A stretch of DNA of 32,000 bases from Promethearchaeum syntrophicum (GTDB lineage: Archaea; Asgardarchaeota; Lokiarchaeia; Sigyniarchaeales; Promethearchaeaceae): the NCBI RefSeq assembly GCF_008000775.2, contig NZ_CP042905.2:930001-962000 (forward strand). Reading direction: 5' to 3'. Positions 4,749-28,858 of this stretch are shown here, one piece after another. The position numbers and the translations under genes are program-made. The notes below the pieces were generated by a model, which worked only from the letters and a program-made list of their open reading frames with translations, searched no databases and was not told the DNA's origin. The first letter of the stretch is position 1. Every line of letters starts with the position of its first letter.

Positions 4749-6008
4749 ATGCAGAATTTAATTGATAAACTCAAAATCAATAATGAAAATGTAAAAACCA
4801 TTAATAATTTCCTTTTAGATCCAGAGAATCCCTTGATGAAAAGTGTCCTTGAAACTATAAATAAATATGGTACGCCTGAAGAGATCAACAGAAAAGCCAA
4901 AGAAGCTGGAAAACTTGAAAATTTAATGAATAGGTTGAAAGCTAAAAATTCGCCTTATGTAAAAGACTTAGAGTGGCTTATAGAACAAAAAGAAAAAGGT
5001 GCTTTTATCAAGTTAGAAGATTATTATAAGAAAATTCTAGGAGATAAATACGAATCCACAAAAATGAAGGAGGGATACGCGGTTACAATGGAACTTTCTG
5101 CTCTTCAATTCTTCCCATTTTTTATAGAAGAAGCCAAACAAGCCATTGCAAATCAAGAATTAATGCCGGGGCGTTATATCAAAGTAAGAAACATGGTAGA
5201 GCAAGTTGAAGACGATCAATTATTAGCAAGTTCTATAGCCATGAAAATTATTGGTGCATCGTATGTTGAAACTCTCGATACTAAAGGAACTGATGGATCT
5301 AATGTACATTTAGGTGGTCCAGAAACAATAACAGGGTACTTTGGAGGAATCGGACAACCTAATACTCATGCTTTAAAGTGGCTCGATGAATTTTTACATT
5401 ATTATACCGAATATGGAGTCCAACAAGTTCTAAATATTAATCCTGGTACAATTCTAATAGGGTACCTGTTATATCGGCTTGGAGTTGATATTGAATTCAA
5501 AATCTCGGTTTATATGGGAAATGATAACCCGTACTCTGTCTTATGGACGATGATGACCGCCAAACTTTTCGCTCGTGAAGATGGAACAACTCCGTTAATT
5601 GGGTTTAATTTCTCTAACTCTGTAAATAATGAAACGATAGAACTCGCAGATTTTCCAAGAAAAGCCTTTGGTTTCGAAGATATTGTTCGGATCGAGCACC
5701 ATATATTTGAAACATGGAAGAGCATTGTAAGGCAGCCTTATGACAGAAGGGCAGAATTGGTTGAAGTGTCTGCAAAAGTCAAAAATATTAGTGCTAAACA
5801 TGAAGGTGGAGATATTGAAGTAGAAAAAAGCCGAGAACATCCATCAGATATTCTTGAGTATTTCTTACCTAAAGAAGAAATAATGAAACAAGGATTAATG
5901 GGCTTTTTAACCAGAAACTATATGGATAAACACGATTCTATTAAAGGAACAGCCGATGCTTTAATAAAGGCTGGTATTCCCGTTATTGTAGCACGGAATT
6001 TACATTAA
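4749..6008 (+). CDS. Conserved-looking hypothetical protein (419 aa), function unknown
   Basis: Long ORF with non-repetitive, globular-looking composition and no competing ORF. I recognise no family motif. It lies 86 nt downstream of the histidine kinase on the same strand. Confidence 0.6.
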   Translation: MQNLIDKLKINNENVKTINNFLLDPENPLMKSVLETINKYGTPEEINRKAKEAGKLENLMNRLKAKNSPYVKDLEWLIEQKEKGAFIKLEDYYKKILGDKYESTKMKEGYAVTMELSALQFFPFFIEEAKQAIANQELMPGRYIKVRNMVEQVEDDQLLASSIAMKIIGASYVETLDTKGTDGSNVHLGGPETITGYFGGIGQPNTHALKWLDEFLHYYTEYGVQQVLNINPGTILIGYLLYRLGVDIEFKISVYMGNDNPYSVLWTMMTAKLFAREDGTTPLIGFNFSNSVNNETIELADFPRKAFGFEDIVRIEHHIFETWKSIVRQPYDRRAELVEVSAKVKNISAKHEGGDIEVEKSREHPSDILEYFLPKEEIMKQGLMGFLTRNYMDKHDSIKGTADALIKAGIPVIVARNLH

Positions 6009-7161: not shown

Positions 7162-7617
7162 GTAATTTATAGAAACTAGGTTTTTATAGTAAAGCAAAAT
7201 TTTTATTTCGAACAAATTCGTCTACAACTCCAAGCTCTCAATAACATTCTCTACGACTAAATTACTTATGAAATTACAATCCTATTCTCTATTATTTGTA
7301 TATTTATCTTCGTAAAAATAATGAAATATATGAGAGTAGAATTACAAACATCTCCTAAATTTACCTTTTTTCAAAAAAACAACAATTTTCTTAGTGCGTG
7401 ACCGTTAGCTTAATGGTTCCTTTAACTATTGTTTCTGATTTAGTAAAAAATAATTAAATAAGAGCTAGAGAAATTCCCGATATTTCCCCGAAATTTAGGT
7501 ATTAATAATATTTTAAATTTTTTCTATTTTTTTTTTAGAAATTTTCCAAAGTTATTATTATTAGAACTATCAAAATATTATTTTATTAGAACAAAAATCT
7601 CTTAGAAGGAACATACA

Positions 7618-7791
7618 ATGCCAAACATAGAAATCGATTTTCAACTTTTCTTACCCAGTCTTTCAGTCTTCTACTCATACTTTGAGATTCTAAAATCCCA
7701 TGATTTTGTAAAAGACGTAGAAATCGTGCAAACTGAAGGATATCCAAAATTGCGGGTTCATAGATTGCCAGAAAAATTTCTATCAATTTAA
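7618..7791 (+). CDS. Possible small ORF (57 aa), below the ORF-track length cutoff
   Basis: ATG at 7618 is preceded by AGAAGGAAC. Translation: MPNIEIDFQLFLPSLSVFYSYFEILKSHDFVKDVEIVQTEGYPKLRVHRLPEKFLSI, then TAA. It overlaps the listed antisense 66-aa ORF 7586..7786, so only one of the two (or neither) is real. Local GC is above that of the surrounding spacer. Confidence 0.2.
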   Translation: MPNIEIDFQLFLPSLSVFYSYFEILKSHDFVKDVEIVQTEGYPKLRVHRLPEKFLSI

Positions 7792-7830
7792 ATAATAATT
7801 TTTATTTTTCATTTGATTCACAAAATCCCC

Positions 7831-7858
7831 GGGAAGGTTTCCTTTCATTTTCCTTCCC
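7831..7858. other. GC-rich perfect hairpin (7-bp stem GGGAAGG/CCTTCCC, 14-nt loop)
   Basis: GGGAAGG at 7831-7837 and its exact reverse complement CCTTCCC at 7852-7858. It stands out in a ~30% GC background and lies 39 nt downstream of the small plus-strand ORF. Confidence 0.4.
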
Positions 7859-8051
7859 ACTATTCTTTATTATCTAGTTAATTTTGACATTTTATTAAAT
7901 TTCGTTGCTAGAACAATTGATACTCAAATGCTCATGGAAAAAGGAGAAAACCCATATATTGTAAATATATTATCGAAATAACATTGAAAATAGAAAATAC
8001 TCATCAAATTTTAAAAAGAAATTAAAATAAAAATGAAAAAATTAAATGTAA

Positions 8052-11178: not shown

Positions 11179-11793
11179 TTATATAATTTTAACATTTTTC
11201 TTATCGTAAGGTGGTATTTTTAAGATCTGTTTAACTAGTTCTTTGAAAATTATATCGACATTGAATCCAGTTTTGCTTGATGTGTCATAAGATGCCTTTA
11301 CTCCTAATTCTTTTTGAAAATCTTCAAGAGTTTTTGGATCAAATTTATATTCTGGATCAATAAGGTCTAATTTAGTGCCTACCATAATTCTCGGAACATC
11401 TCCTGCATTTGATATTAACAATGGATTCCAATCTCTTTTTAAATTTTCCAAAGTAACAAATCGAGTCAGATCATGTACAATCAATGCTGCATTAGCACCA
11501 GTAATAAATTGTGGTAAAAGTGGTGTGAACCGTTCTTGTCCACCAAAATCCCAGATAGATAAACCTATTCTTATTTTTATTCCATCTTCTTCAGCGGGGA
11601 TCGAAAATGAGTTAAAAGAAAGTCCAATTGTTAGTTTTGTGTCAACATCGAATTCATTAAAACAAAATCTATTAGTTAAAGCAGTTTTACCACAACCTCC
11701 ATCCCCTAACAAAACGATTTTGAATTGATATTTAATATCCTCTTCAGAATCTTCAATATTATAAGATGAATCTTGGTTAGCGAGCTGCATCAT
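11179..11793 (-). CDS. Small GTPase of the Ras superfamily (Rab/Ras-like)
   Basis: G1 LLGDGGCGKT, switch I Thr (KLTIGLSF), G3 WDFGGQERF (DxxGQ), G4 GTKLD ([NT]KxD), G5 SSKTG. There is no C-terminal Cys prenylation motif (ends KNVKII). Confidence 0.85.
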   Translation of the reverse strand: MMQLANQDSSYNIEDSEEDIKYQFKIVLLGDGGCGKTALTNRFCFNEFDVDTKLTIGLSFNSFSIPAEEDGIKIRIGLSIWDFGGQERFTPLLPQFITGANAALIVHDLTRFVTLENLKRDWNPLLISNAGDVPRIMVGTKLDLIDPEYKFDPKTLEDFQKELGVKASYDTSSKTGFNVDIIFKELVKQILKIPPYDKKNVKII

Positions 11794-12016: not shown

Positions 12017-12742
12017 TTACTTACTCTTAGTTGATTTCTTAGTTGATTTCTTAGTTGTTTTCTTTGCAGCTTTCTTAGGTGTAGGTTTTGCAGCAGTTGA
12101 ACTAAGGATATCAATCGAATGTTGGTGAAACTTTAATAAAAGATCCTTATGTTTCTTTAAAACTTCCTTTAAGACTTTCTTTTCTTTTGTCTTATATTTA
12201 GCATCGACTTTTTCAAGTGCTGCTTCTTTATTTTTCACAAGGTCAAAGGATTCTCCAACCAACCTAGCGCCTTCATTCACCACTTCTTCTTGTGCTGCTA
12301 TTTTTTCTTCTACCCTTTCCTCAGCATTTTCAAGTTTCTCTAATTTAGCTTTGCCTCGTTCCAACGATTTCTTATCTTTTTCGTGGTCCTTAATTGTTTT
12401 TTCAACGTCTTTCTTCATATCTTGAAGTTCTAACCAGTCCTCTACTAATTCCTCCAATGGAACTATACAATCAGTATTTAAACTTTCAACTAATTCTTTT
12501 CTACTTGCCTCAATATTTTCCAAAGTATCTGAAAAAGGACCGGTTTCAAAATGCTCTGCATTTTTCAAATATTCAATGTATTTTTGGTTTTCTAATGAAA
12601 ATCTTTCATTATATTTACCAAAATCTTTAATTTCTTTTATCAGCTTAGTTAATTCTAAACTTGAAGTCGCTAATTTGTCTGATACTTTATTCAGACTACC
12701 TTTCATTTTATCTAAAAACGAAGTTTTCTCGCTCATAAACAA
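12017..12742 (-). CDS. Coiled-coil protein (241 aa) with BAR-domain-like helix pattern and a polybasic KK[ST]T C-terminal tail
   Basis: Three long helical segments. The central stretch CIVPLEELVEDWLELQDMKKDVEKTIKDHEKDKKSLERGKAKLEKLEN resembles the helix2-helix3 junction logic of BAR proteins (V.PL....I..i.k.I.KR.hk..DyD....k..kl). Tail is AAKPTPKKAAKKTTKKSTKKSTKSK. The CDS call is solid; the fold assignment is inference. Confidence 0.7.
   Translation of the reverse strand: MFMSEKTSFLDKMKGSLNKVSDKLATSSLELTKLIKEIKDFGKYNERFSLENQKYIEYLKNAEHFETGPFSDTLENIEASRKELVESLNTDCIVPLEELVEDWLELQDMKKDVEKTIKDHEKDKKSLERGKAKLEKLENAEERVEEKIAAQEEVVNEGARLVGESFDLVKNKEAALEKVDAKYKTKEKKVLKEVLKKHKDLLLKFHQHSIDILSSTAAKPTPKKAAKKTTKKSTKKSTKSK
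12026..12061 (-). repeat. 12-nt tandem repeat x3 inside the CDS, encoding (KKST)n
   Basis: On the plus strand, cttagttgattt appears at 12026-12037 and 12038-12049, and cttagttgtttt at 12050-12061 (one mismatch). Confidence 0.8.
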
Positions 12743-12884: not shown

Positions 12885-13739
12885 ATGGAAACGAATTTAA
12901 TTCTTTTATTTATTACAGCGGCAATTAAAACTGCAGTTTTATTCTTAATAGCTTCATACCTCATTAATAAATGGGCAAAACAAAAATTAAAATATTTTAC
13001 AGATTTTCCCTTTCTAAACGCTTTAGGATTTTACATTTTTAGTTTTGGTAAACTTTTGGATATGTTTTTATATTATCACTTTATTAATACTCCCAATTTA
13101 GCGATTTTGAATGATTCTTCTGCCCTTTTGCTAGGAAGGATACGTTTTATTTTAAGTCCAATTTTGGTAGTTCTCCCATATTTTATTTTAATGCTAGTAA
13201 TTTGGTTAGAAAACAGAAAAAAAATTCAGAAAGTGCTAGGATTTGGATGGATAGTTTTAAGTATTGTTGCTGTACTCTTAGCTAAAGGATACACACAGTT
13301 TTTGTTTTTCAATTTGATTATTGCTTTCCCGGTTATTTTGCTATCAATAATTTCATTCGCAGTCATCCATCATCAGCAAAAATTACCCCAAATTAATTCT
13401 TTATTCATAACTATCGGATGGGGGGCTTATTTAATAACTCAAATTATCAGACCGTTTTGGATATCTCTTGGAAATAGTTCATGGGGATTAACTTGGGTAG
13501 GAGAATTTGTGGAATTAATCTCAATGACTATTATTGGTATAGGATTTATCAGACCTGCATCATATTTCGAGAAAAGTATTAATCAATTTTTAATAAAAAA
13601 AACTTTTGAGAATGATGATTCGATTGAAATTGATGATAGAAATGAAGTGAATGAAAAAAATAATGAGACTGAAGAACATGAGGAAATAATTGAAGTTACT
13701 CCAAAATGGAAATATGACGTAGAGTGCTATATTCCCTAA
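12885..13739 (+). CDS. Integral membrane protein (about seven predicted TM segments) with an acidic C-terminal tail
   Basis: Seven hydrophobic stretches of 17-28 aa by eye, followed by a soluble tail ENDDSIEIDDRNEVNEKNNETEEHEEIIE. No family motif recognised. Confidence 0.7.
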   Translation: METNLILLFITAAIKTAVLFLIASYLINKWAKQKLKYFTDFPFLNALGFYIFSFGKLLDMFLYYHFINTPNLAILNDSSALLLGRIRFILSPILVVLPYFILMLVIWLENRKKIQKVLGFGWIVLSIVAVLLAKGYTQFLFFNLIIAFPVILLSIISFAVIHHQQKLPQINSLFITIGWGAYLITQIIRPFWISLGNSSWGLTWVGEFVELISMTIIGIGFIRPASYFEKSINQFLIKKTFENDDSIEIDDRNEVNEKNNETEEHEEIIEVTPKWKYDVECYIP

Positions 13740-16352: not shown

Positions 16353-17180
16353 TCATTTCTTTTTGTATATTTTATAAGCAGAAATAATTTCAGGAGGGCA
16401 TCTTTTACATTTTGAGAGATGTCTCAATACAGATACTTTGGATTTTTGACAAAATGGACAAATTTCTTTGATATTCTCGCCAGTACCAACTTTTTTTATT
16501 TTATCGATGACTTCCGCTTCAAAATCAATAGAAGATACTTCTTCGCTTTCTTCTGATTTGTCTTCTTTTTCATCAAAATCCTCTATTTCTTCTTCAAACT
16601 CTTCATCTTCTTCGTCTTCTTCATCTGATTCTTTCAAAGGTCCATGTTTTTTACCAAGTCCTTCCTCACTTTCGTCTTCATAATCAATAACTTCTTTCTC
16701 TTCTTTTTCGTGCCCGATGATTAATTCTTCTTCATCTTCTTCAGTTACTTTCTCAATTTCGAAATCATCATCATCATCATCGTCATCTTCAACTTTTTTC
16801 TTTGATTTCTTCTTAGATTTTTTCTTTTTGACAATAATTTCCTCTTCATCTTCTAATTCATCTTCTTCTTCTTCTTCTAAATCCATTACGAAATCATCAT
16901 CAGAATATTCTAGATCATTTTCATCAAATTGAAAATCTTTCGCTTCCGTTGCAACATACATTTCTTTATGAGTTAATTGAGAAGAATTTTCAACATAGAG
17001 TGAACATATTTGGCATATTACATTATATGGACTTAAATTAAATTTTCTTGCAGTACAATAACAGAGAGGTTTTCTAGCGTTTGAAATTTCGTCGATATTC
17101 TTTAAATGTTTACAAGCAATCGTTCTTATTGTTTTTTTTGCTTTTGTGGTTTTTTTCTTTTTTGCCATATCTTTAGCCAA
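16353..17180 (-). CDS. Extremely acidic protein with Cys clusters (zinc-ribbon-like) at both ends and a KKKKTTKAKK N-terminus
   Basis: N-terminal CKH...CYC...CQIC. C-terminal CPFCQ...CKRCP (CxxC-x15-CxxC). The central ~130 aa are mostly D/E, including a D8 run. Confidence 0.65.
   Translation of the reverse strand: MAKDMAKKKKTTKAKKTIRTIACKHLKNIDEISNARKPLCYCTARKFNLSPYNVICQICSLYVENSSQLTHKEMYVATEAKDFQFDENDLEYSDDDFVMDLEEEEEDELEDEEEIIVKKKKSKKKSKKKVEDDDDDDDDFEIEKVTEEDEEELIIGHEKEEKEVIDYEDESEEGLGKKHGPLKESDEEDEEDEEFEEEIEDFDEKEDKSEESEEVSSIDFEAEVIDKIKKVGTGENIKEICPFCQKSKVSVLRHLSKCKRCPPEIISAYKIYKKK
16764..16787 (-). repeat. Trinucleotide repeat (ATC)6-GTC-ATC on the plus strand, encoding poly-Asp (D8)
   Basis: Direct reading of 16764-16787; this is the DDDDDDDD run in the acidic protein. 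Confidence 0.85.
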
Positions 17181-18333: not shown

Positions 18334-19416
18334 ATGGAAAAATCAATTAAAGAAACAATATCATATGAAAGTTCAACCATAGAAAGAATGATTTCTCTTT
18401 GTAAACAAATCAAAAATGGAGAAAATAAAATAAAAATAAAAGAGGAACTTGATGCGTTATTAGAAAGTCCGGATTACAAAATAGAATTTGCCCGTTATAA
18501 TGGACGAGTGTCAAAAGAAGATTTTAGAGATTATTTATTGAATTTTTTCTCATTAAATCCAGAAGAAATTCAAAATGAAGACTTAAAAGTGCGATATGAA
18601 CATTTCAAATATTTCTTTGATAATATAGAATTATATATCTCAAATATAGATAAAATTCATGAGATCTTTTCAATCACAACTCTTGAAGAACAGAAAAAAA
18701 TAGCTCAAATTGGCCTTCCTGAAGACCTTGAATTAGGTAATATCACTTTCTTATTTACTATCGGTGTTGGAATGTCATTTGGATGGCCATATTGTGATGA
18801 AAAACTAGGAAACTTTATTCATTTCGATTTCATTCAACTTTTTAAACAATTCTCAATTGAAGAAATTCATTCATTCATTGCTCATGAAATTCATCACATA
18901 GGTGTAAACCAATTACACGATAAAATAGATACCGCATCTATCTCGCTTGAACAGTTATTCTATCTATTGTTTTCAGGAGAGGGATTAGCAGTAAAATATT
19001 GTAATAATGCAGAAGGGATTCTTTCCAAACGATTCAATTCAGATATAACTCCTAACCTCGGCTTAGATCCATTTTCATGGGAATATCTTAACAATGATTT
19101 TCAAAATACATTTAAAGCATTTAAGGAACATTTAGAACAAATAAGAAGCGGAGAAATTTCAAATCAAGAAGAGCTTATGGGATTATTTCATAAATATTGG
19201 ATGAATGCACATACAGACGAACAAGATCGCTCAGATTCTCCTCAGCTCAAACAATCGCGTTTCTATAGTTTTGGAAATGAATTATGGGGCACAATCCAAG
19301 ATGTGTTTGGAAAATCAAAGGTGTATTGGTTATTTGATCATCTATCAGATTTTGCACATACTTTCAATGAAGCTCTTGAAATATCTGGAAAATCTGAATA
19401 TAAAATTCCTTTATAA
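18334..19416 (+). CDS. HExxH-motif protein, putative zinc metallopeptidase
   Basis: FIAHEIHHIGV (HExxH) with GEGLAVKY 33 residues downstream. The remainder is not recognised. Confidence 0.55.
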   Translation: MEKSIKETISYESSTIERMISLCKQIKNGENKIKIKEELDALLESPDYKIEFARYNGRVSKEDFRDYLLNFFSLNPEEIQNEDLKVRYEHFKYFFDNIELYISNIDKIHEIFSITTLEEQKKIAQIGLPEDLELGNITFLFTIGVGMSFGWPYCDEKLGNFIHFDFIQLFKQFSIEEIHSFIAHEIHHIGVNQLHDKIDTASISLEQLFYLLFSGEGLAVKYCNNAEGILSKRFNSDITPNLGLDPFSWEYLNNDFQNTFKAFKEHLEQIRSGEISNQEELMGLFHKYWMNAHTDEQDRSDSPQLKQSRFYSFGNELWGTIQDVFGKSKVYWLFDHLSDFAHTFNEALEISGKSEYKIPL

Positions 19417-19474
19417 TATTTTTTTTAAATCGAATAATTTTTTTGTTTTTATATTATTATATCTTTGAGATTTT

Positions 19475-20380
19475 ATGACTTCATTATTCTATAGTGAACC
19501 CGTTTTCAGACCACCATCGGAAGGAAACTCTCTTCTCCTTACTGTTTCTATCGGATGCAGCTTTAATTGCACATTTTGCTACCCTTATAAACATAAGAAA
19601 TTTTCTATCAGAGATATCGAAGATATAAAGCGAGATATTGATATATCAAAAAAAATTTATGGAGATTCGATAAGGAAAATTTTCCTCTTAGATGGAAATG
19701 CATTTGCTTTAGCACCTGAGAAATTAATCGAAATTTCAAATTATTGTTATAAACAACACAAAAACCTCAAAAGAGTAAGTGCATATGCTCATGCAAACGA
19801 TATTATAAGTAAATCAGATGAAGATTTATTGAGAATTGCAAAATCTGGGCTTAAAATGGTTTATTTGGGGATTGAAACGGGAGATAATGCTCTACTTAAA
19901 ACAATTAATAAGAAAACTTCTGCAGAAAATCTAACTAAAGCAGCTTATAAATTACACAATTCAGGAATAATCTTGTCTGGAACTATTATTTTAGGATTAG
20001 CAGGGAATATACCAGATTTAAGTAAAAAACATGCAATTTTAACTGCAAAACTGATAAATCAGATGAATCCGATAAGAAACCAGTTATGGTATATATCGGC
20101 TTTAAGTTTAATGATTCCCCCAGAAACCATTATAAAACAACAGGTTGAAAATGGAATTTTTACTCCTTTAAATCAGAAAGATACTTTGAAGGAATTAAAA
20201 TTCTTATTAGAGAATATTTCTGATGACCTTCATGGTTGTATTTTTCGTTCAAATCATGCTTCAAATTATTTAGCTTTAAAAGGTGTATTGGCCAACGATA
20301 AATATGATCTGATTGAAAAAGTAAAATATGGGTTGGATCATCCCGAATCTTTACGGCCTGAATATTATCGAGGGCTTTAG
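19475..20380 (+). CDS. Radical SAM enzyme
   Basis: CxxxCxxC cluster motif GCSFNCTFCY after RPPSEGNSLLLTVS. GIETGD and SNHASNY motifs. No C-terminal SPASM-like Cys cluster is visible. Confidence 0.85.
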   Translation: MTSLFYSEPVFRPPSEGNSLLLTVSIGCSFNCTFCYPYKHKKFSIRDIEDIKRDIDISKKIYGDSIRKIFLLDGNAFALAPEKLIEISNYCYKQHKNLKRVSAYAHANDIISKSDEDLLRIAKSGLKMVYLGIETGDNALLKTINKKTSAENLTKAAYKLHNSGIILSGTIILGLAGNIPDLSKKHAILTAKLINQMNPIRNQLWYISALSLMIPPETIIKQQVENGIFTPLNQKDTLKELKFLLENISDDLHGCIFRSNHASNYLALKGVLANDKYDLIEKVKYGLDHPESLRPEYYRGL

Positions 20381-20482: not shown

Positions 20483-21565
20483 ATGGAAAAACAATTTTTA
20501 GACTATTTAGATTCTGAAAAAAAGATCATAAATAGTTCCGTTCAAAATTATTTTCAACAGGCAATTCAACTTGAAGAAGAACCGTTTTTACGAGAGTTTC
20601 TTTCATTCGGGCAATATTTTATAGTTCAGGGAGGACGCAGATTACTTCCCATCTCTTTGAAAAATACATTCATGGGTTTAAGCTCAGAAAAAGATATTTT
20701 GGAATATTCTGAGGCAATTTATAACGTTAGTATTTCAATTGAGATGTTACATGTATCTAATTTGATGATTGATGACTTAATTGATAAAGAAGAATATCGC
20801 CGTGGGAATAAGACTTTTCATCGCTTTATAGGAGATAAAATGACCCATCTTAATCAGGTAGATTTGGAAGAATATGCAATTTCTTCGACTATATACGGCG
20901 CTAATATTATATCATTAATGGGATCGCAAATAATTAAAAATTCAAAATTTGATTCTATTAGGAAAGAAAAAGCTCTTGTGTTATATCTAAATGGAATGTT
21001 AGGAATGAGTCGAGCTCATCTTCTTGAAGAATATTATAAACAAGTTCCATTAGAGAAAATTAATCTTGAAAATTATCTTATTTTGGCGGATAAAAGAGCT
21101 AAACAGATGGAAACAGCTGTTGGATTAGGGGCTGTTTTTGGAAATGCGCGAAAATCCCAAATGGGGCCATTAATGCAAGCTATGAATAAAATCGGAATCA
21201 TATCTCAAGTGGTCAATGACATTGATGGAAGTTTTGGAAAAAAAGTGGACAAAAAATCCCTAGATTCTGACATAAAAAGTGGCCAAAGTACTATCCTAAC
21301 AGTGGTTGCATACCAAAGTGCCGATAAAAAGCAAAAAAAAATACTCAATAGTGTATTAGGTAATAGGAATGCAACATCTGAAGAAATTAACTCTGTTAGA
21401 GAAATTTTTCAAGAAACAGAAGCGGTTAATTTCGCAACAATATATTCCAATAATCTCAAAAATGATGTTTACCGAAATTTACAACGAGTTTATCCAGGAT
21501 TTCGAAAAGAAATCATGAATTTTTATTCTCAACTTTTAGGATATATAACTGATTATAAAGATTGA
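20483..21565 (+). CDS. trans-Polyprenyl diphosphate synthase family with a degenerate second Asp-rich motif
   Basis: First Asp-rich motif MIDDLIDKEEYRRG (DDxxD..RRG) is intact. Where QxxDDxxD is expected the sequence is QVVNDIDG. Downstream GKKVDKKSLDSDIKSGQSTI matches the GK...D...GK.T region. Confidence 0.8.
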   Translation: MEKQFLDYLDSEKKIINSSVQNYFQQAIQLEEEPFLREFLSFGQYFIVQGGRRLLPISLKNTFMGLSSEKDILEYSEAIYNVSISIEMLHVSNLMIDDLIDKEEYRRGNKTFHRFIGDKMTHLNQVDLEEYAISSTIYGANIISLMGSQIIKNSKFDSIRKEKALVLYLNGMLGMSRAHLLEEYYKQVPLEKINLENYLILADKRAKQMETAVGLGAVFGNARKSQMGPLMQAMNKIGIISQVVNDIDGSFGKKVDKKSLDSDIKSGQSTILTVVAYQSADKKQKKILNSVLGNRNATSEEINSVREIFQETEAVNFATIYSNNLKNDVYRNLQRVYPGFRKEIMNFYSQLLGYITDYKD

Positions 21566-22332
21566 GGAGAATTGAAAGAACATTTGGTAGGTTGAGAAAG
21601 ATTAGCTCTGATAAAATAAAGAAAAAAAATCATTTGGCATTTGAAAATCAAATAATTAAAAGAAATTATTATTTATTGAAACATCACTTATTATTCCTAT
21701 TGGATTCTGGTCTTGATTTTCTGAAAAGAGAATACGTTAAGCGAAATAGTGAGACATCTTTTATGGAGTTTACTTCCCAGAATTATTACGATTTTATTTT
21801 GAAAGATTATATTCGTAAGAAAATAAAAAACCAAATAAATTCCATTTTAAATTCTGGTTTATTGTGTATTAAGCACATGGTTGATGATACAGTTGATCCT
21901 GATTTTTTAGATCAACTTATTAATAAAAATTACCCAGAATATGAATCAAATGATCTAAGTTTGTTGCATTCTTCAAATAACCATCCTGGATTTTCAGAAT
22001 TAAAAACAATTAGCCAACTTACATTTAGGATTGCAATTATCCAGACTGCTTATATTCTTTCATGTCAAGATCTTGAAATAAAAACTTATCTTCAATTAAT
22101 GAAGAAAGTTTTTCCCACGAAAAAAGATAGTCAAGAAGCACTAAATTCAATATTTTCAATGTTTAATCAAATGGTGGATTGCTTTGAAAGGCACTTACAG
22201 ATGATTACAATACCTTTTTATAAACCAACATTCAATATAAGGGATTTTCAATTCGTTCGGATATGTTATGAATACGCAATTAAGATAGTTGATGAACAAT
22301 TAAATGAATTATATCCGGAGGAAGAATTATGA
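21562..22332 (+). CDS. Hypothetical helical protein (256 aa), translationally coupled to the polyprenyl synthetase; contains DDTVD
   Basis: The TTG start overlaps the upstream TGA (aTTGAgg). The first in-frame ATG is 65 codons in. The only DDxxD-type motif is HMVDDTVDPDF. No family recognised. Confidence 0.5.
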   Translation: MRRIERTFGRLRKISSDKIKKKNHLAFENQIIKRNYYLLKHHLLFLLDSGLDFLKREYVKRNSETSFMEFTSQNYYDFILKDYIRKKIKNQINSILNSGLLCIKHMVDDTVDPDFLDQLINKNYPEYESNDLSLLHSSNNHPGFSELKTISQLTFRIAIIQTAYILSCQDLEIKTYLQLMKKVFPTKKDSQEALNSIFSMFNQMVDCFERHLQMITIPFYKPTFNIRDFQFVRICYEYAIKIVDEQLNELYPEEEL

Positions 22333-23120
22333 AGAAAAATTCAATGCAGAAAATTAAACCCGAAATTAGGACTTCACTAAAAAGTTTAGGTTTTACTGAT
22401 TATAATATAAATATCTACTTAGCACTTCTTAATTCTGGAGAAATGAATGCTCATGAATTATCTAAGAAAACTGGAGTACCTTACTCAAGAATTTACGAAG
22501 TATTAAACGAAATGACAAATAATCAAAAATTATTAACAAAAATCGATGGACGCCCCTCAACCTTTGTTGCAAATAATCCAAAAGAGATTTTTAAATCAAT
22601 TAAACAAAAGAAAGATGATGAATTTGAAGAGAACATGAAAATGTCGCTTCCGTATCTTAATAATCTTTACGGGGATCACAATTTAGCTAAACAGATGTCT
22701 TTTACGGTTTTCGAAGGTGCAAAATCTTGTAGAGATCATGTAAGAAATGTCTTAAACTTCACGGTAAAAAATTTATCATTTTCATTGAAAGAAATTGATG
22801 AGGTTTATAGTGCAATTAAGGTTAATTTCGATTTCTTAAAACGAATCGGCTGCAAAGTACGAATTATTCTTGAGGAACGATTTCGAAATTCAGAAATTTA
22901 TGAAGAAGTAAAAAAAAATTGTGAAATAAGATTTGTTCCAATAATTCATGAAACTCTCTTAATTTCTGATGAAAAAACGGCGATTATGGCAATAAAATCA
23001 AATTTCAATATACTAAAACCTTCAGAAATTTCATTTACAATAATTTCCTCTTCTGATTTAATGTTTGTGACTTTTGTATCTGAAATTTTCAATCGAAATT
23101 GGAAAATTTCAAAAGAATAG
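22329..23120 (+). CDS. TrmB-family transcriptional regulator
   Basis: N-terminal LGFTDYNINIYLALLNSGEMNAHELSKKTGVPYSRIYEVLNEM is the TrmB wHTH signature. The start ATG overlaps the upstream stop (ATGA at 22329-22332). Confidence 0.8.
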   Translation: MKKNSMQKIKPEIRTSLKSLGFTDYNINIYLALLNSGEMNAHELSKKTGVPYSRIYEVLNEMTNNQKLLTKIDGRPSTFVANNPKEIFKSIKQKKDDEFEENMKMSLPYLNNLYGDHNLAKQMSFTVFEGAKSCRDHVRNVLNFTVKNLSFSLKEIDEVYSAIKVNFDFLKRIGCKVRIILEERFRNSEIYEEVKKNCEIRFVPIIHETLLISDEKTAIMAIKSNFNILKPSEISFTIISSSDLMFVTFVSEIFNRNWKISKE

Positions 23121-23145
23121 AGGTATTCGTTTAAAAATTTTGTTT

Positions 23146-23155
23146 AAAAAAAAAA
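23146..23155 (-). terminator. Oligo-U tract (U10 on the minus-strand RNA) downstream of selD and the SECIS candidate
   Basis: A10 on the plus strand at 23146-23155. Archaeal termination typically uses oligo-T tracts. It lies in the convergent spacer between the trmB-like gene and selD. Confidence 0.45.
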
Positions 23156-23173
23156 TGGGTTTCCATTATGCGT

Positions 23174-23227
23174 GGATAATCTCATATAAAAATCCAATGG
23201 TTTATATTTTATATTCATCGATAACCC
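23174..23227 (-). promoter_or_regulatory. Candidate SECIS element in the selD 3'UTR (kink-turn AUGA_AA_GA architecture)
   Basis: Minus-strand RNA: GGGUUAU-CG-AUGA-AUAUAAAA-[UAUAAACCAUUGGAU]-UUUUAUAU-GAG-AUUAUCC. Helix II has 8 perfect bp (23207-23214 with 23184-23191). AUGA (23215-23218) faces GA (23181-23183). The apical loop contains AAA. The lower helix has 5 WC pairs, 1 GU and 1 mismatch. Confidence 0.5.
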
Positions 23228-23240
23228 TTTTTTCATGAAA

Positions 23241-24278
23241 TTACTTGAAATCTGCCACTTCTATGAGAAGATTCTTTTCCTGAAATTTGATTGATTGATG
23301 CTTTTTTGAAATTTTACCCACTTCAAACCACCAAACATTATTATCTTCTAAAGCATGGATAAAATTGTCAAATTCTTTCGGGTCGACCGCTATCAGCATA
23401 GGTCCTGCAATTTCAGGTGAAAATCCCTCACGCAATCGATATCCAAAGTAATCCGCGAGCGAAACTGTTGTAGGTATTACTGGAATCTGTGAAATATCTG
23501 CTCCCAAATTTGAATCTTCAAGCATTTCCTCAAGATGTCCAGCAAAACCAAAGCCAGTAATGTCGGTCATAGCGTGGATTGAGTTGAAGAAATTTCCTTC
23601 ATGGATAACTTTCACAACGTTCCGATTTGAGGTTGTCATGCATTTTACTCCAGTATCGATAGATTTTTTAATTTCATCCAAATTATAATCATCCAATAGT
23701 TTAATTTCACTCTTCATCACCCTATAGGCTGCCATGATCGGCTGAACTCCTAAAGGTTTTGTCAAAATTAGCCGATCTGACATCTTGATTCCTCTCTTAC
23801 CAATGATTTCAGAATTTTTTATAATTGCTGATGCTGATCCTCCGAATAATGGCCATGGATTATATATAGTATGCCCTCCATGCACATCGGTTTCGATATC
23901 TTTGAGAAAATCTCTCATACCATCAATGATCTTTACTGGGAAATCTTTTGGGATATCAGTTGGAACTCCTATGAATGCAGAATAATTTGAAACATTTAAC
24001 GCATTTAACGCAAACAGATCGTTGGTTACATTACATGCTGCAATTTTTCCCATCATATAAGGATCGTCATGAATCGCGGTAAAGATGTCTATATTTGAAA
24101 TTAATTTATCTCCTTTGTCATTAATGGAAATAATGGAGCAATCTTCTGCTTTAGATGGTAACCCAGCGGATGTTAAAATTTCTTTTAATTTTGTGGCAGG
24201 AATTTTACAAGATCATCCATGAAGTGAACACTTTTGTGTCAAAAGATATTCATAAGATTTTTTTCTCTGTTCACTCAT
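23241..24278 (-). CDS. selD: Selenophosphate synthetase SelD, selenocysteine-containing (in-frame UGA at 24213-24215 = Sec, residue 22)
   Basis: The listed ORF (23241..24056) starts at MMGKIAACNV and lacks the catalytic N-terminus. The same frame upstream reads MSEQRKKSYEYLLTQKCSLHG-U-SCKIPATKLKEILTSAGLPSKAEDCSIISINDKGDKLISNIDIFTAIHDDPYMMGK with a single TGA. That TGA sits at the position of catalytic Cys17 of E. coli SelD (GAGCGCK loop). The ATG at 24276-24278 has an SD. The full product is 345 aa, normal for SelD. Confidence 0.9.
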
Positions 24279-24282
24279 AAAT

Positions 24283-24290
24283 TCACCTCC
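24283..24290 (-). promoter_or_regulatory. Shine-Dalgarno sequence for selD
   Basis: The minus strand reads GGAGGTGA-ATTT-ATG. Confidence 0.55.
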
Positions 24291-24347
24291 GATATTGCTA
24301 TTGAAAATTAACATATTAGAATAAATTAAAAGAATTCGGTTTCAAAA

Positions 24348-27095
24348 CTAAAGAATTATTTCTCCTTGCTTGGAGAAACTTTTAATTTCCCCAAATGGGT
24401 TTGTATAAGTTACATTTAACAAGAATTTCTGTAATTCGTAGCGTTTTTGGAGGTCGATATTCTTATCTTTGATTTTAGAAATTCGAAAAACCCATTTAAT
24501 AACGCGAATTGCTTCAGGTTCAAATTCTCGAATAAAAATCTCGGTAGGATCACTATTTTCTTTTTGGTATTGTAAGAATTCAGGATGAATAAAAATCATT
24601 CCGATATCCGATATGAAAAACTTAGTTGGGTTGTATACTCTCAGAGAAAATATTAATTTGGTTCCTATAATTTCAACTTTTCTGAAAAATGATAATAATC
24701 TCTCTTCCATAGGTTTTTGCGGTTGAATTAAAAGATCATCTTCAATTTCTGCTATTATCGTTTGGTTTTGAATTAGTATTATTAATTTTTCTTTAAGTTC
24801 TTTTGTTGTAAGGGATAATATTTTTCCTAAATGTTCAATAGAAATCGGGTTAATATATTTAAGATATTCTTTTATTTCTTCAGTAAAAATAGTCTTATCA
24901 ATTTCGTTTTTAAAACTAAAAATTTTTTCCAAAAGATTGTCTTTAACTTGCGTCCAATTATTTAGATATTTCCTAATTTCATTGGCGGATGTTATTGGTA
25001 TATTAATTTTATCAATGTTCTCATAATTACGATTAATTTCTCTATTATTATCTTCAATAGAGCTATATAAATTATTAATTGTTAATTGAATTAAATTTCG
25101 CGCTTCTTTAAATCTACGAACTTGGATTTCCTTTTTAATAGGTTCAGAAATCTTATCAAATCTCTCCAAAACATCTCGTTGACTTGAAATTGCCTGAATA
25201 ATTATATTCTGCAGATTAGTGCTCAAAAATTCATAAGTAATTTTCTTTTTAAGGGGGGATATTTCATGAGAAACTTCTTTCGTCGTTTCTTGAAAAACAC
25301 TAAACTTATGAAAAACGTTAGCAAGGTATTGTTGTATTTCTATTTTAATATCGATCCAAGTGACTGTAATCTCTTTTAAAAATTCTTTGAATTCCAAATT
25401 ATTTAACCAGGTTTGACCGATATCAAACTCAAGCTTAAATAATTTTTCGCGAATGCTTGAGATATTATTTAAAAATTCCTCTGTTCTTTTAATATCTTCA
25501 TCATCCATTTTTTCTTCAAGAAGAACTTCCATTTTTTTAATAGATTCGTATTCGGTCTTTACTACATCAATTCGATCCTTTAATTCAGAAAGAAGAATAT
25601 CTAATTCTTTAATGTAGTCTGCTCGTCCATCGCAAATTAAGTTATATATTGATGAATTTACATCCGAGATATTTTCAAGTATTTCTTCCTTTATATCTAT
25701 AAAATCTTGAATTACCTCAACATTAAATCTCTTAAATTCTGATTCGTGTAGTATCTTCTCAAATTCATCCAATTTTTCTGCTATTCGATTTCCTTCTTCT
25801 TCTAAAAATATTTCAGATTGGATGAATTTCTTTTGATTAACATAAGATTCTGCTTTTTTTCGTAAATTTTGGGTTTGTTTTTGAAATAAATCTAAATTAG
25901 AATAAAATTTTTTACTTTTTAGAGCAATTTCTTCAATTTCTTTATCAATATCATTAAAAATGTTATTTATTTTTTGTAGAGAAGACTCAATTTCATCTAA
26001 AACATCTAAATCTTCTTCATTTTGCTGCCAATTCTTTAAATTTATCGCTGTCCAGACACAAATTGACTTAATATGTAATACATAGGAAAGATCACCAAGT
26101 AAACTAATAATTTTTTTTCTTTGTCGCCAATCATCAGGATCTAAACTTTGAAATATTATAAAAATTTCTTCTTCGAAACCATCTGGTTTTTCCATATAAA
26201 TTTTCAATAAGCAATTGGTTATCAAATTCCTAATGGGAATCTTTGGAACAACCAGTTGTCCAATCATAATTGGTAACATTTCTTTCATATTTTGAAGCGT
26301 GATATATATTAATGTTTCAGAGATTCCTTGGCCAATATCATCACTAAAATCATTAATAAATGGTTTGAAAAATTCTAGAAGAGCAGGTCCATGATTCATG
26401 CCAATTTTCACAAAAGAATCAATTGTTTTTGTTTGAATTATCATGATTTCATCAGAAAACATCAAAACCAGATTCTGAAAAAGTTTATAAATTTCATCAA
26501 AGAAATAATCTCCAATTTCTCCAATAATCCAAATAATTTTTTCTCTAATCATCCAATCTACATCTTCTAATAGAGGAGATAAAAGTGCATGAATTTTGAA
26601 AGAATCCAAATGAAAACAGAGAGCTTTCAATACTTCAGCTGATAAACCCCGAACTTCTTCATCTGGGTCTCTTAGCAAAATAATCACATTTTCTTTTAAA
26701 ATATCAATCATTTCATTTGGAGGGTCTGATTCTGGTGTTAAAAAGGATAGTACCATTTCCAAAGCCCGTGCTCTCACTGTCCATGAATCATCTTCAAGAG
26801 TTCGACTAAAAGTAAAATAAAGTTCTGGATATTGTATGAAAGAGTTTTTTAAAATAGATCCTACAAGTAAAACCGCGGATTCTCTTACGTTTTTATCAGA
26901 ATCAAAGAGTCTTGCTTCAATTTTTTCTATCAAAACATCAAAATCCTTAGGATGAATTAGATAAAGTTTCTTTAATATTTGAAGCGATTCTTGTCGGATC
27001 CAATATTCAGAATGATCTAATAAGGTATTTATCTTTTCTAAAGTTAAGAGGGCTGTGTGGTCTGATTTATCACTAATATTATTTAAAATTCCCAA
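24348..27095 (-). CDS. Large HEAT-repeat protein: N-terminal HEAT/ARM solenoid, ~350-aa coiled-coil/helical region, winged-helix-like segment, C-terminal beta-rich domain
   Basis: PBS-lyase-type HEAT repeats: DSDKNVRESAVLLVG, DDSWTVRARALEMV, DPDEEVRGLSAEVL, DVDWMIREKIIWIIG, DPDDWRQRKKIISLLG. Then a long E/K/I/L-rich helical region, followed by HLGKILSLTTKELKEKLIILIQNQTIIAEIEDD (wH-like). The last ~130 aa show alternating beta patterns (LIFSLRVYNPTKFFISDIGMIFIHP...). The listed start is TTG at 27095; see the finding on the upstream extension. Confidence 0.8.
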   Translation of the reverse strand: MGILNNISDKSDHTALLTLEKINTLLDHSEYWIRQESLQILKKLYLIHPKDFDVLIEKIEARLFDSDKNVRESAVLLVGSILKNSFIQYPELYFTFSRTLEDDSWTVRARALEMVLSFLTPESDPPNEMIDILKENVIILLRDPDEEVRGLSAEVLKALCFHLDSFKIHALLSPLLEDVDWMIREKIIWIIGEIGDYFFDEIYKLFQNLVLMFSDEIMIIQTKTIDSFVKIGMNHGPALLEFFKPFINDFSDDIGQGISETLIYITLQNMKEMLPIMIGQLVVPKIPIRNLITNCLLKIYMEKPDGFEEEIFIIFQSLDPDDWRQRKKIISLLGDLSYVLHIKSICVWTAINLKNWQQNEEDLDVLDEIESSLQKINNIFNDIDKEIEEIALKSKKFYSNLDLFQKQTQNLRKKAESYVNQKKFIQSEIFLEEEGNRIAEKLDEFEKILHESEFKRFNVEVIQDFIDIKEEILENISDVNSSIYNLICDGRADYIKELDILLSELKDRIDVVKTEYESIKKMEVLLEEKMDDEDIKRTEEFLNNISSIREKLFKLEFDIGQTWLNNLEFKEFLKEITVTWIDIKIEIQQYLANVFHKFSVFQETTKEVSHEISPLKKKITYEFLSTNLQNIIIQAISSQRDVLERFDKISEPIKKEIQVRRFKEARNLIQLTINNLYSSIEDNNREINRNYENIDKINIPITSANEIRKYLNNWTQVKDNLLEKIFSFKNEIDKTIFTEEIKEYLKYINPISIEHLGKILSLTTKELKEKLIILIQNQTIIAEIEDDLLIQPQKPMEERLLSFFRKVEIIGTKLIFSLRVYNPTKFFISDIGMIFIHPEFLQYQKENSDPTEIFIREFEPEAIRVIKWVFRISKIKDKNIDLQKRYELQKFLLNVTYTNPFGEIKSFSKQGEIIL

Positions 27096-27314
27096 TAATA
27101 CTTCTAAAAGGTCTTTTTTATCCTCAGAGAGTGCTTCAGAAATATAACTATTAGTTAATTCTATAGCACTATCATACCTTTTTTTAGCAATTAGTTTATT
27201 AATTTCTTTAATTTGCTTTGGGATTTTTACTTTTTGCTTCGCCGTCTCTGTTTCGACTCCAATTATTAAATTTCGAAATATCGTATGCTTTTACATTGAA
27301 AGTAAATTACTCAA

Positions 27315-27385: not shown

Positions 27386-28858
27386 ATGGCTAAGAAAAAG
27401 AAGAAAATATCATCTGAAGAAAAACTTTCAGCAGATGATTTAGGAATAGTAAAAAAGAAAACTATCACTAAAAAAAAGACCTCCAAGAAGTCTTCTTCAA
27501 AAAAAACAACTACGAAGAAAAAAACCACAAAGAAAACCACAAAAAAAAAGACTACTAAGAAGACTAAAAAAAAAACCACAAAGAAGGTTATAAAAAAAAC
27601 AGATTTTATTCAATCTTCTTGTAATGTCGGCTTAGTGGGACATGTAGATCACGGAAAAACGACTCTTGTAAAAGCCCTTTCTGGAACTTGGACTGAAAAA
27701 TATTCTGATGAGATAAATAGAGGAATAACCATAAAATTGGGTTACGCTGAAGCTGCAATAGATCAATGCCCTAATTGTAATTTAATAATTGCTGAATCAG
27801 TAGCTAATAATTTACGTAAAAGCAAAAAAGATCAAAAAGGAATGTGTCCAAATTGTGGAACAAAGTTAAATTTTAAAAGAAGAATTTCATTCGTTGATGC
27901 TCCAGGTCACGAAATCTTGATGGCAACCATGCTATCGGGAGCTTCCTTAATGGATGGTGCTTTATTATTAATTGCTGCCAATGAAGAATGCCCACAACCC
28001 CAAACTAGAGAACATTTAGCAGCCTTAGGCATTGCAAAAATTGAAAATATTATCATAATTCAAAATAAAATTGACGCAGTTGGAAAAGAAAGAGCAATTG
28101 AACATTATAACCAAATAAAAGATTTTGTTAAAGGAACAATAGCAGAAAATGCTCCTATCATACCAACTTCAGCAATTTTCAACTCAAATATTGATCTAAT
28201 CTCTGAAAAAATTGAAGAAATTATTCCGTCACCTGATCTAGATCATGATTCCGAATTTTTGTTCAATATTGCCAGATCATTTGATGTCAATAAACCCGGT
28301 TCAGAAATTGAAAAAATCAATGGTGGAGTTATAGGAGGAAGTATTATTACTGGTACTATAAGTGTGGGTGAAGAAATTGAAATTCGCCCAGGTTTCAGAT
28401 CTAAGGAAGGTAAATATTCTACTATAATTACTACAGTCGAATCAATTTATGAAGGGAGAAATTCATTAAATTCAGCTAAACCTGGTGGGTTAATAGCAAT
28501 TGGAACAAAATTGGATCCATCACTCACTCGTTCTGATCAATTAATTGGAAATGTTGCGGGAATTCCTGGTACTTTACCAGATGTTCAATATTCTGTGGAA
28601 ATTGAAGCGCATTTACTTAAAGAAGTATTGGGTGCTGAAGAAGAAATTGCTGTAACTCCGATTATAAAGAATGAATTGATAATGATCGTAGTTGGCACAA
28701 GTTTGTCTGCTGGTGTCGTGGAGAAAATTGGAAAGAAAAATACAATTACATTGAAATTAAAACGCCCAATCTGTGCTCTGGATGGATCAATTGTTGCTAT
28801 TAGCAGAAGAATAAAGAACAGATTCAGATTGATTGGTTATGGATACTTAATTTCTTAA
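27386..28858 (+). CDS. eif2g: Translation initiation factor aIF2 gamma subunit with a ~70-aa Lys/Thr-rich N-terminal extension
   Basis: GHVDHGKTTL, DAPGHEILMATMLSGASLMDGALLLIAANEECPQPQTREHL, QNKID, ARSFDVNKPG, zinc-ribbon insert CPNC...CPNCG, C-terminal RFRLIGYG. No alternative in-frame start lies between 27386 and the G1 motif, apart from a GTG inside the G1 motif. Confidence 0.9.
   Translation: MAKKKKKISSEEKLSADDLGIVKKKTITKKKTSKKSSSKKTTTKKKTTKKTTKKKTTKKTKKKTTKKVIKKTDFIQSSCNVGLVGHVDHGKTTLVKALSGTWTEKYSDEINRGITIKLGYAEAAIDQCPNCNLIIAESVANNLRKSKKDQKGMCPNCGTKLNFKRRISFVDAPGHEILMATMLSGASLMDGALLLIAANEECPQPQTREHLAALGIAKIENIIIIQNKIDAVGKERAIEHYNQIKDFVKGTIAENAPIIPTSAIFNSNIDLISEKIEEIIPSPDLDHDSEFLFNIARSFDVNKPGSEIEKINGGVIGGSIITGTISVGEEIEIRPGFRSKEGKYSTIITTVESIYEGRNSLNSAKPGGLIAIGTKLDPSLTRSDQLIGNVAGIPGTLPDVQYSVEIEAHLLKEVLGAEEEIAVTPIIKNELIMIVVGTSLSAGVVEKIGKKNTITLKLKRPICALDGSIVAISRRIKNRFRLIGYGYLIS
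27449..27600 (+). repeat. Low-complexity A-rich coding repeat encoding (K/T/S)n
   Basis: VKKKTITKKKTSKKSSSKKTTTKKKTTKKTTKKKTTKKTKKKTTKKVIKK. AAACCACAAAGAA recurs at about 27522 and 27572. A9-A10 homopolymers are present, yet the reading frame is preserved. Confidence 0.8.

Follow-up and report, generated by a model that had tools for sequence, protein, structure and literature searches.

Probable selenocysteine-encoding selD gene with a eukaryote-like SECIS element in Candidatus Prometheoarchaeum syntrophicum

Lokiarchaeota encode a selenophosphate synthetase (SPS, or SelD) with one in-frame UGA at the selenocysteine (Sec) position. The accessible text of Mariotti et al. (2016, PMC4989117) describes for it a distinct, eukaryote-like selenocysteine insertion sequence (SECIS), the 'SPS lokiSECIS', whose main stem is shorter than in other lokiSECIS and which carries an additional apical stem. 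The same text characterises euryarchaeal SECIS by an asymmetric GAA_A bulge between GC-rich stems, the upper one consisting of three G-C pairs, and states that no SECIS-binding factor was known in Asgard archaea. In the parts of a later survey available to us (PMC11227280, 2024), >90% of the Asgard archaea that use Sec are reported to have a Sec-containing SelD, whose elements are mostly of type II, in the form AUGA_GA. The type II core is defined, in the accessible text, as AUGA_GA or [A/G]UGA_[G/A]A. Here, we analysed a 32,000-nt stretch of contig NZ_CP042905.2 (positions 930,001–962,000; 'the window', in which all positions below are counted) and in it the selD gene at 23241–24278 on the minus strand. 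Judged from sequence, we hold with roughly 90% confidence that this selD (SPS) gene of Candidatus Prometheoarchaeum syntrophicum genuinely encodes Sec. A Sec-containing selD of this organism is already known: the SelD alignment in supplementary file 52 of PMC11227280 contains the entry Lokiarchaeia_GCA_008000775_U, which matches the product residue for residue and has X as residue 22 if numbering starts at the ATG at 24278. A preliminary description of this DNA had reconstructed the gene correctly; it had missed the SECIS in the 3' untranslated region (UTR), a further in-frame ATG upstream (24314) and the prior publication.

The locus resembles the Lokiarchaeota Sec-SPS in the UGA at the catalytic site and in an element (23157–23227, minus strand) that combines a short main stem and an apical ministem with unpaired adenines and the core AUGA...GA. 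The published entry differs in its start, which is placed at ATG 24314, whereas ATG 24278 is favoured here. The Sec-SelD of Methanococcales and Methanopyrus are likewise archaeal selD selenoproteins with a 3' UTR SECIS, but the features of the euryarchaeal element were absent on inspection: the element here has 29% GC, A/U-rich helices, a K-turn (kink-turn)-like form and no GAA/A bulge. Eukaryotic SEPHS2 (SPS2), with its type II SECIS, is alike in the loop position of Sec, the AUGA/GA in the 3' UTR, the unpaired adenines and the ministem. In contrast to SEPHS2, the upper stem is shorter here (7–8 bp); moreover, the eukaryotic Rfam model misses the element even at E-values up to 10, and SBP2 is not known in Asgard archaea. 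In bacterial Sec-SelD (Aquifex aeolicus, PDB 2zod/2yye), the loop Sec/Cys aligns with U22 of the product, but the bacterial SECIS is a coding-sequence hairpin just 3' of the UGA, and no such hairpin was found here or in relatives. The sequence after the UGA was tried as a bacterial-type SECIS and rejected (z from −0.84 to +1.56, with inconsistent folds across six loci).

The full coding sequence comprises 345 codons and a TAA stop in a single frame, with Sec at codon 22. The minus-strand translation of 23241–24278 reads MSEQRKKSYEYLLTQKCSLHG, a stop, and then SCKIPATKL...DDPYMMGK..., and the sole internal stop is the TGA at 24213–24215. Each sequence-level statement previously made about this single in-frame TGA in the 345-codon minus-strand frame from ATG 24278 was reproduced. 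In the mechanical list of open reading frames (ORFs), merely ORFs of 41–45 aa on the opposite strand occur in 24057–24347, and selD is called from the ATG at 24056, with 271 aa. Over the 74 codons upstream of this ATG, 5.8 stops are expected at the composition of the window (30% GC), and the probability of finding exactly one is 0.015. No more than one stop in the 74 upstream codons was found for 3 of 24 long ORFs of the window, and the two besides selD were trivial cases.

Profile searches were run with U replaced by C. The 345-aa product matched the AIRS and AIRS_C domains (PF00586, PF02769) and the SelD equivalog TIGR00476 (198.9 bits, cutoff 125), with SelD equivalog profiles matching residues 10–337. 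The best NCBIfam match, the archaeal SelD profile PRK14105, was spanned from position 5 to 340 of 345. The alignment of the product to SelD families, suggested earlier as a check, thus gave a profile match from end to end. Because the SelD profiles extend over the 74 upstream codons, these codons are SelD sequence and not spacer.

The TGA falls within the catalytic loop codons CAT GGA TGA TCT TGT AAA (24204–24221, minus strand), which encode H-G-U-S-C-K. Against E. coli SelD (3u0o), LTQYSHGAGCGCKISPKVL pairs with LTQKCSLHG[U]SCKIPATKL without gaps, placing U22 on Cys17, as had been proposed, and K25 on Lys20. The loop Cys of Leishmania SelD (GCSCK) and of Aquifex SelD (GCAAK) also aligns at U22. 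The Asp in the query motifs EDCS, NIDIF and TNDLF align with E. coli Asp in DDAAV, TTDFF and ISDIF. These E. coli residues we take to be metal ligands of the ATP/metal site. The best solved homologues were human SPS1 and Leishmania SPS2. The product therefore shows what is expected of a SelD, namely the domains and equivalog match, a loop Cys/Sec with Lys three residues on, and the Asp residues. In this comparison, the TGA falls on the catalytic Cys/Sec position of the enzyme.

Conservation was assessed in ten Lokiarchaeial loci with 46–100% protein identity, including two Promethearchaeum metagenome-assembled genomes and the cultured Lokiarchaeum ossiferum (single loci are cited as L002, L003, etc.). 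TGA was found at the identical codon in all ten, within Y-x-L-T-x-K-x-x-(L/M/I)-H-G-TGA-(S/K)-C-K. In the 11 codons preceding the TGA, close pairs differed by one to five synonymous codons and by no non-synonymous codon. Residues 9–74 (66 residues) were conserved at least as well as residues 75–345 in eight of nine comparisons, and the ninth was within one percentage point. The preliminary description had named a lack of conservation of the 74 upstream codons in orthologues as the result that would speak against it; the opposite was observed. As the codons upstream of the TGA are conserved and their changes synonymous, a decayed N-terminus is excluded. The pattern indicates purifying selection on both sides of the UGA. 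The marks of a selenoprotein gene found here are hence an in-frame UGA on a Cys/Sec position, its conservation in orthologues, coding constraint on both sides and a SECIS in the 3' UTR (23157–23227, minus strand).

This SECIS is of the eukaryote-like type II (Loki SPS type) and begins 14 nt past the stop codon; all its parts lie on the minus strand. An outer helix GGGUU/AACCC (23223–23227 with 23157–23161) closes it, and a 3-bp stem AUC/GAU followed by a bulged G lies between this helix and the AUGA. The 5' part of the core (23215–23218) is AUGA in eight loci, GUGA in L010 and UUGA in L011. The 3' part (23182–23183), its partner in tandem sheared G.A pairs, is GA in nine loci and AA in L007. 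The upper 7-bp stem (23207–23213 with 23185–23191, together 23185–23213) surrounds an unpaired UAUAAA and a CC/GG ministem (23199–23200 with 23194–23195), which reads CC-AUU-GG after the UAUAAA. The element accordingly has the type II features: an AUGA_GA core, an upper stem of at least 7 bp, and unpaired adenines followed by a ministem. Judged by motif, the short stem, 3-nt bulge, tandem G.A pairs and second stem would form a K-turn arrangement. A side hairpin UCCA-CGCAUAA-UGGA (23162–23176) stands between this K-turn arm and the outer helix. The element is immediately followed by a run of ten U (23146–23155), which probably serves as an archaeal transcription terminator; T-runs were present 0–12 nt after the element in nine of the ten loci.

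The 3' flank was strongly conserved in close relatives, and one architecture was common to all ten loci. A MAFFT alignment of the ten 3' UTR segments mis-registered the indels and was rejected. A register-anchored alignment was used instead and checked by RNAalifold and a covariance model. In this alignment, which was registered by hand, 97.5% of 199 cells paired, versus 28–52% when the 3' strand was slid. Shuffled alignments paired at 65%, and none of 500 shuffles attained the observed value. Both sides had changed in 19 of 21 pairs. In the upper stem, all 70 cells were paired and all seven pairs had changed on both sides; nine of the ten sequences folded this helix unaided. In the side hairpin, 94.9% of cells were paired, and three of four pairs had changed on both sides. 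Neither the AAA nor the first pair of the ministem varied among the ten loci; the second pair changed from C-G to U-A or A-U in two. RNAalifold recovered the outer helix, upper stem and side hairpin from six unedited sequences that had been aligned automatically. The covariance model was trained on these six loci, with four held out. For three of the held-out loci, the best match lay right after the selD stop: L011 with 34.6 bits (E 9e-6), L004 with 23.8 (E 0.003) and L010 with 19.7 (E 0.03). L007 gave a weak match (E 2.3). In the window, the model scored 90.1 bits at the SECIS, and all other matches had E ≥0.38.

Some chance-level matches were seen around the element. In the relaxed Rfam search, C/D-box snoRNA models matched the SECIS and nearby sequence (23162–23221, minus strand; E 0.6–9) via CGAUGA...UGAGA. 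These matches were not significant, although they fit a K-turn-like core, and chance-level matches to sRNA models occurred too. A weak second match of the SECIS model (16.3 bits, E 0.19) was found at L009:1258–1329 (minus strand), upstream of selD in that locus and on the opposite strand. It has CUCAAUGAUUAU in common with the SECIS of L009 itself and could be chance or a remnant.

The published SECIS models, as given in the accessible text of PMC4989117 and PMC11227280, comprise the core, upper stem and apical part only, and the side hairpin and outer helix are unmentioned in that text. We considered whether the K-turn arm, the covarying side hairpin and the outer helix abutting the oligo-U might together form a three-helix domain and a selD-specific module. 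We regard this as a doubtful proposal.

Two in-frame start codons come into question. The preferred ATG (24276–24278, minus strand) is preceded at a distance of 4 nt by the Shine-Dalgarno-like GGAGGTGA (24283–24290), whose presence had already been described; it is invariant in the window, L002 and L003. This ATG is the only start that is in frame in all four close loci. The alternative ATG (24312–24314) lies 12 codons upstream and is the start in the published alignment, where the entry opens MLIFNSNIGGEFMSEQ. In L002, a 1-nt indel throws the equivalent of this upstream ATG out of frame. In L008, only 5 of the 12 codons between both ATGs are identical, versus 80% for residues 9–74. ATG 24278 is favoured because of the invariant GGAGGTGA, the L002 indel, the poor L008 identity and the SelD profiles starting at residue 10. 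On these sequence grounds, it appears to be a better start than the published one, and the region of ATG 24314 is probably 5' UTR or promoter sequence.

Automated callers truncate the gene, as had been predicted. The top match in the nr database was 100% identical and is a 312-aa selenide, water dikinase SelD of Candidatus Prometheoarchaeum syntrophicum. This record (P0001) opens with MLTSAGL, whereas the genome encodes ILTSAGL (Ile34, ATT at 24177–24179, minus strand). As M replaces the genomic Ile34, the deposited annotation is also truncated, and its ATT start is an artefact of this truncation. The same applies to the ATG (24054–24056, minus strand) from which a 271-aa protein is called in Logan. 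A survey of the best 120 database homologues (P0001–P0120) showed that 86 begin downstream of the site and 34 read G-W-x-C-K; Cys was found in none of the 120. The 34 Trp-translated homologues look like code 4 calls on short low-GC contigs.

The public annotations of 312 and 271 aa would also fit a UGA that acts as a real stop. The selD gene would then have decayed or lost its N-terminal part, with reinitiation at ATT 24179 or ATG 24056 and a product without the catalytic loop. The use of TGA as an ordinary stop elsewhere in the window agrees with this. However, the 21 upstream codons and residues 23–74 are under purifying selection and are conserved like the rest, and the TGA is fixed at one codon across ten diverged loci. 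A truncated product would be without the loop equivalent to Cys17/Lys20, and a covarying SECIS is present in the 3' UTR. We consider a real stop highly improbable. A genome-wide reassignment of TGA to Trp or Gly (code 4 or 25) and an assembly error are already refuted. As the terminator of 4 of 26 long frames in the window, TGA is an ordinary stop, and genome-wide reassignment is excluded; selD alone has a meaningful internal TGA. The W at the site in the 34 database homologues would speak for reassignment, but L007, which encodes one of these 'W' homologues, has TGA in its DNA, and translation with table 11 does not reproduce the record. The W at the Sec site is therefore a caller artefact. 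Moreover, solved homologues never have Trp at the catalytic site of SelD. Across 23101–24400, the window was identical to an independent assembly of run DRR199588, which rules out a sequencing error.

Read-through of the UGA could also insert Sec only part of the time, or never. Cys might be inserted via Cys-tRNA(Sec), giving a Cys-type SelD under selenium scarcity, or the residue of a near-cognate tRNA might be used. The inserted residue is indistinguishable from sequence alone, and, by established knowledge, a Sec-dependent SelD that is needed for its own Sec poses a bootstrapping problem. We nevertheless judge such decoding to be very unlikely, given a dedicated and conserved SECIS and a Cys codon in none of the best 120 homologues. 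As there was no Cys switch among these homologues, Sec itself appears to be selected. In addition, six other Sec-UGA genes are reported from this genome (PMC11227280): its alignments give Sec-marked FrhA, FrhD, HdrA and three Prx-like proteins for GCA_008000775, in agreement with the earlier prediction that other UGA-interrupted genes would exist. These genes also lend indirect support to the presence of the Sec machinery in the genome. The assignment as a Sec-encoding selD also has to be held against several results that weigh against it. PRK14105 scored 287.8 bits (U replaced by C), slightly below its cutoff of 291. No tRNA-Sec, EFSec, PSTK or SepSecS was found within the 32-kb window, in which the tRNA search gave no tRNA at all. 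No SECIS model of Rfam matched the element at gathering or relaxed thresholds. The folding energy of the SECIS was unexceptional (z from −0.2 to −2.5), and plain minimum-free-energy folding of the 3' UTR (z −0.14) did not reveal the element. As folding energy alone is unremarkable, the structural evidence is the covariation. The pair counts come from an alignment with hand-set register and variable linkers removed, which favours the structure; RNAalifold and the covariance model offset this in part. The 7-bp upper stem needs no choice of register, since it is contiguous with fixed motifs.

If the gene is a Sec-encoding selD, translation would start at ATG 24278, after the ribosome-binding site GGAGGUGA. 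At the UGA of codon 22, the ribosome would insert Sec instead of terminating. The signal would be the K-turn-type SECIS at 23157–23227 (minus strand), situated ~1 kb past the UGA and immediately ahead of the oligo-U terminator. This SECIS would recruit a Sec-specific elongation factor bearing Sec-tRNA(Sec). In an enzyme with an AIR-synthase-like fold, Sec22 and Lys25 of the flexible N-terminal loop would handle selenide and ATP. The enzyme would then yield selenophosphate for Sec-tRNA synthesis. The actual insertion of Sec and the trans-acting factors are what we infer from established knowledge.

The gene of a large HEAT/PDS5/Cnd1-like repeat protein (915 aa; 24348–27095, minus strand) immediately precedes selD on its strand, at a distance of 69 nt. 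The order of HEAT protein and selD was kept in L006, L009 and L010 (52–63% SelD identity), and not in L004 or L011. The frame of the HEAT ORF stays open for 65 further codons (27096–27290, minus strand) and is protein-like (KQKVKIPKQIKEINKLIAKKRYDSAIELTNSYISEALSEDKK...), with no ATG, GTG or TTG. The HEAT homologues adjoining selD in L006, L009 and L010 have 952–967 aa. Because of these longer homologues and the open protein-like frame, the real start of the HEAT ORF may lie upstream and be non-canonical. On the other side of selD, three plus-strand genes (20483–21565, 21562–22332 and 22329–23120) overlap by 4 nt each and encode a polyprenyl synthase, an unnamed protein and a TrmB-family regulator. 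Their arrangement suggests translational coupling in an operon (20483–23120) that converges on selD. The SECIS and the U run lie in the 120-nt convergent spacer between the TrmB-family gene and selD.

Another UGA-joined gene was considered at 19466–19468 (plus strand) and rejected as chance: the TGA lies three codons before the normal ATG of the radical-SAM gene 19475–20380. The frame above it has 70 open codons, is of low complexity and overlaps the ORF 18334–19416. The EF-Tu-like GTPase at 27386–28858 (plus strand) was considered as SelB and proved to be aIF2-gamma (TIGR03680, 567 bits, cutoff 514.5; selB, 130 bits, cutoff 242). It has a Lys/Thr-rich low-complexity N-terminal extension of ~70 residues (MAKKKKK...TTKKKTTKKTKKK), especially in 27386–27600. 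No internal ATG precedes the G domain, and the DNA shows a 12–15 nt repeat family at 27497–27599. A small GTPase of the Ras/Roc/Arf family (11179–11793, minus strand; Ras, 109 bits) is of a eukaryote-signature type common in Asgard genomes. In the 890 nt at 7162–8051, no ORF exceeded 66 aa, and neither an Rfam match nor a tRNA was found. Pfam gave no match for the ORFs 4749–6008 (+), 12017–12742 (−), 12885–13739 (+), 16353–17180 (−) and 21562–22332 (+), which encode 241–419 aa; for 4749–6008, there was no NCBIfam match either. Acidic repeats (families D1 and D3) abound in the ORF 16353–17180.

The practical value of this analysis is annotation correction. The reference record of the first cultured Asgard archaeon carries a SelD without its catalytic loop, and truncation or a spurious Trp affects all of the best 120 homologues. 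The absence of an Rfam model means that pipelines cannot recognise the SECIS. As biology, little is added, as Sec-SelD with a eukaryote-like SECIS is a published hallmark of Lokiarchaeial selenium metabolism. The analysis adds, on a small scale, a refined start codon and further covarying helices, which could feed a better SECIS model. If the three-helix domain were true, the extra helices could be a platform for an Asgard SECIS-binding factor, or could give selenium-responsive control on a selenoprotein that the Sec pathway needs for starting itself.

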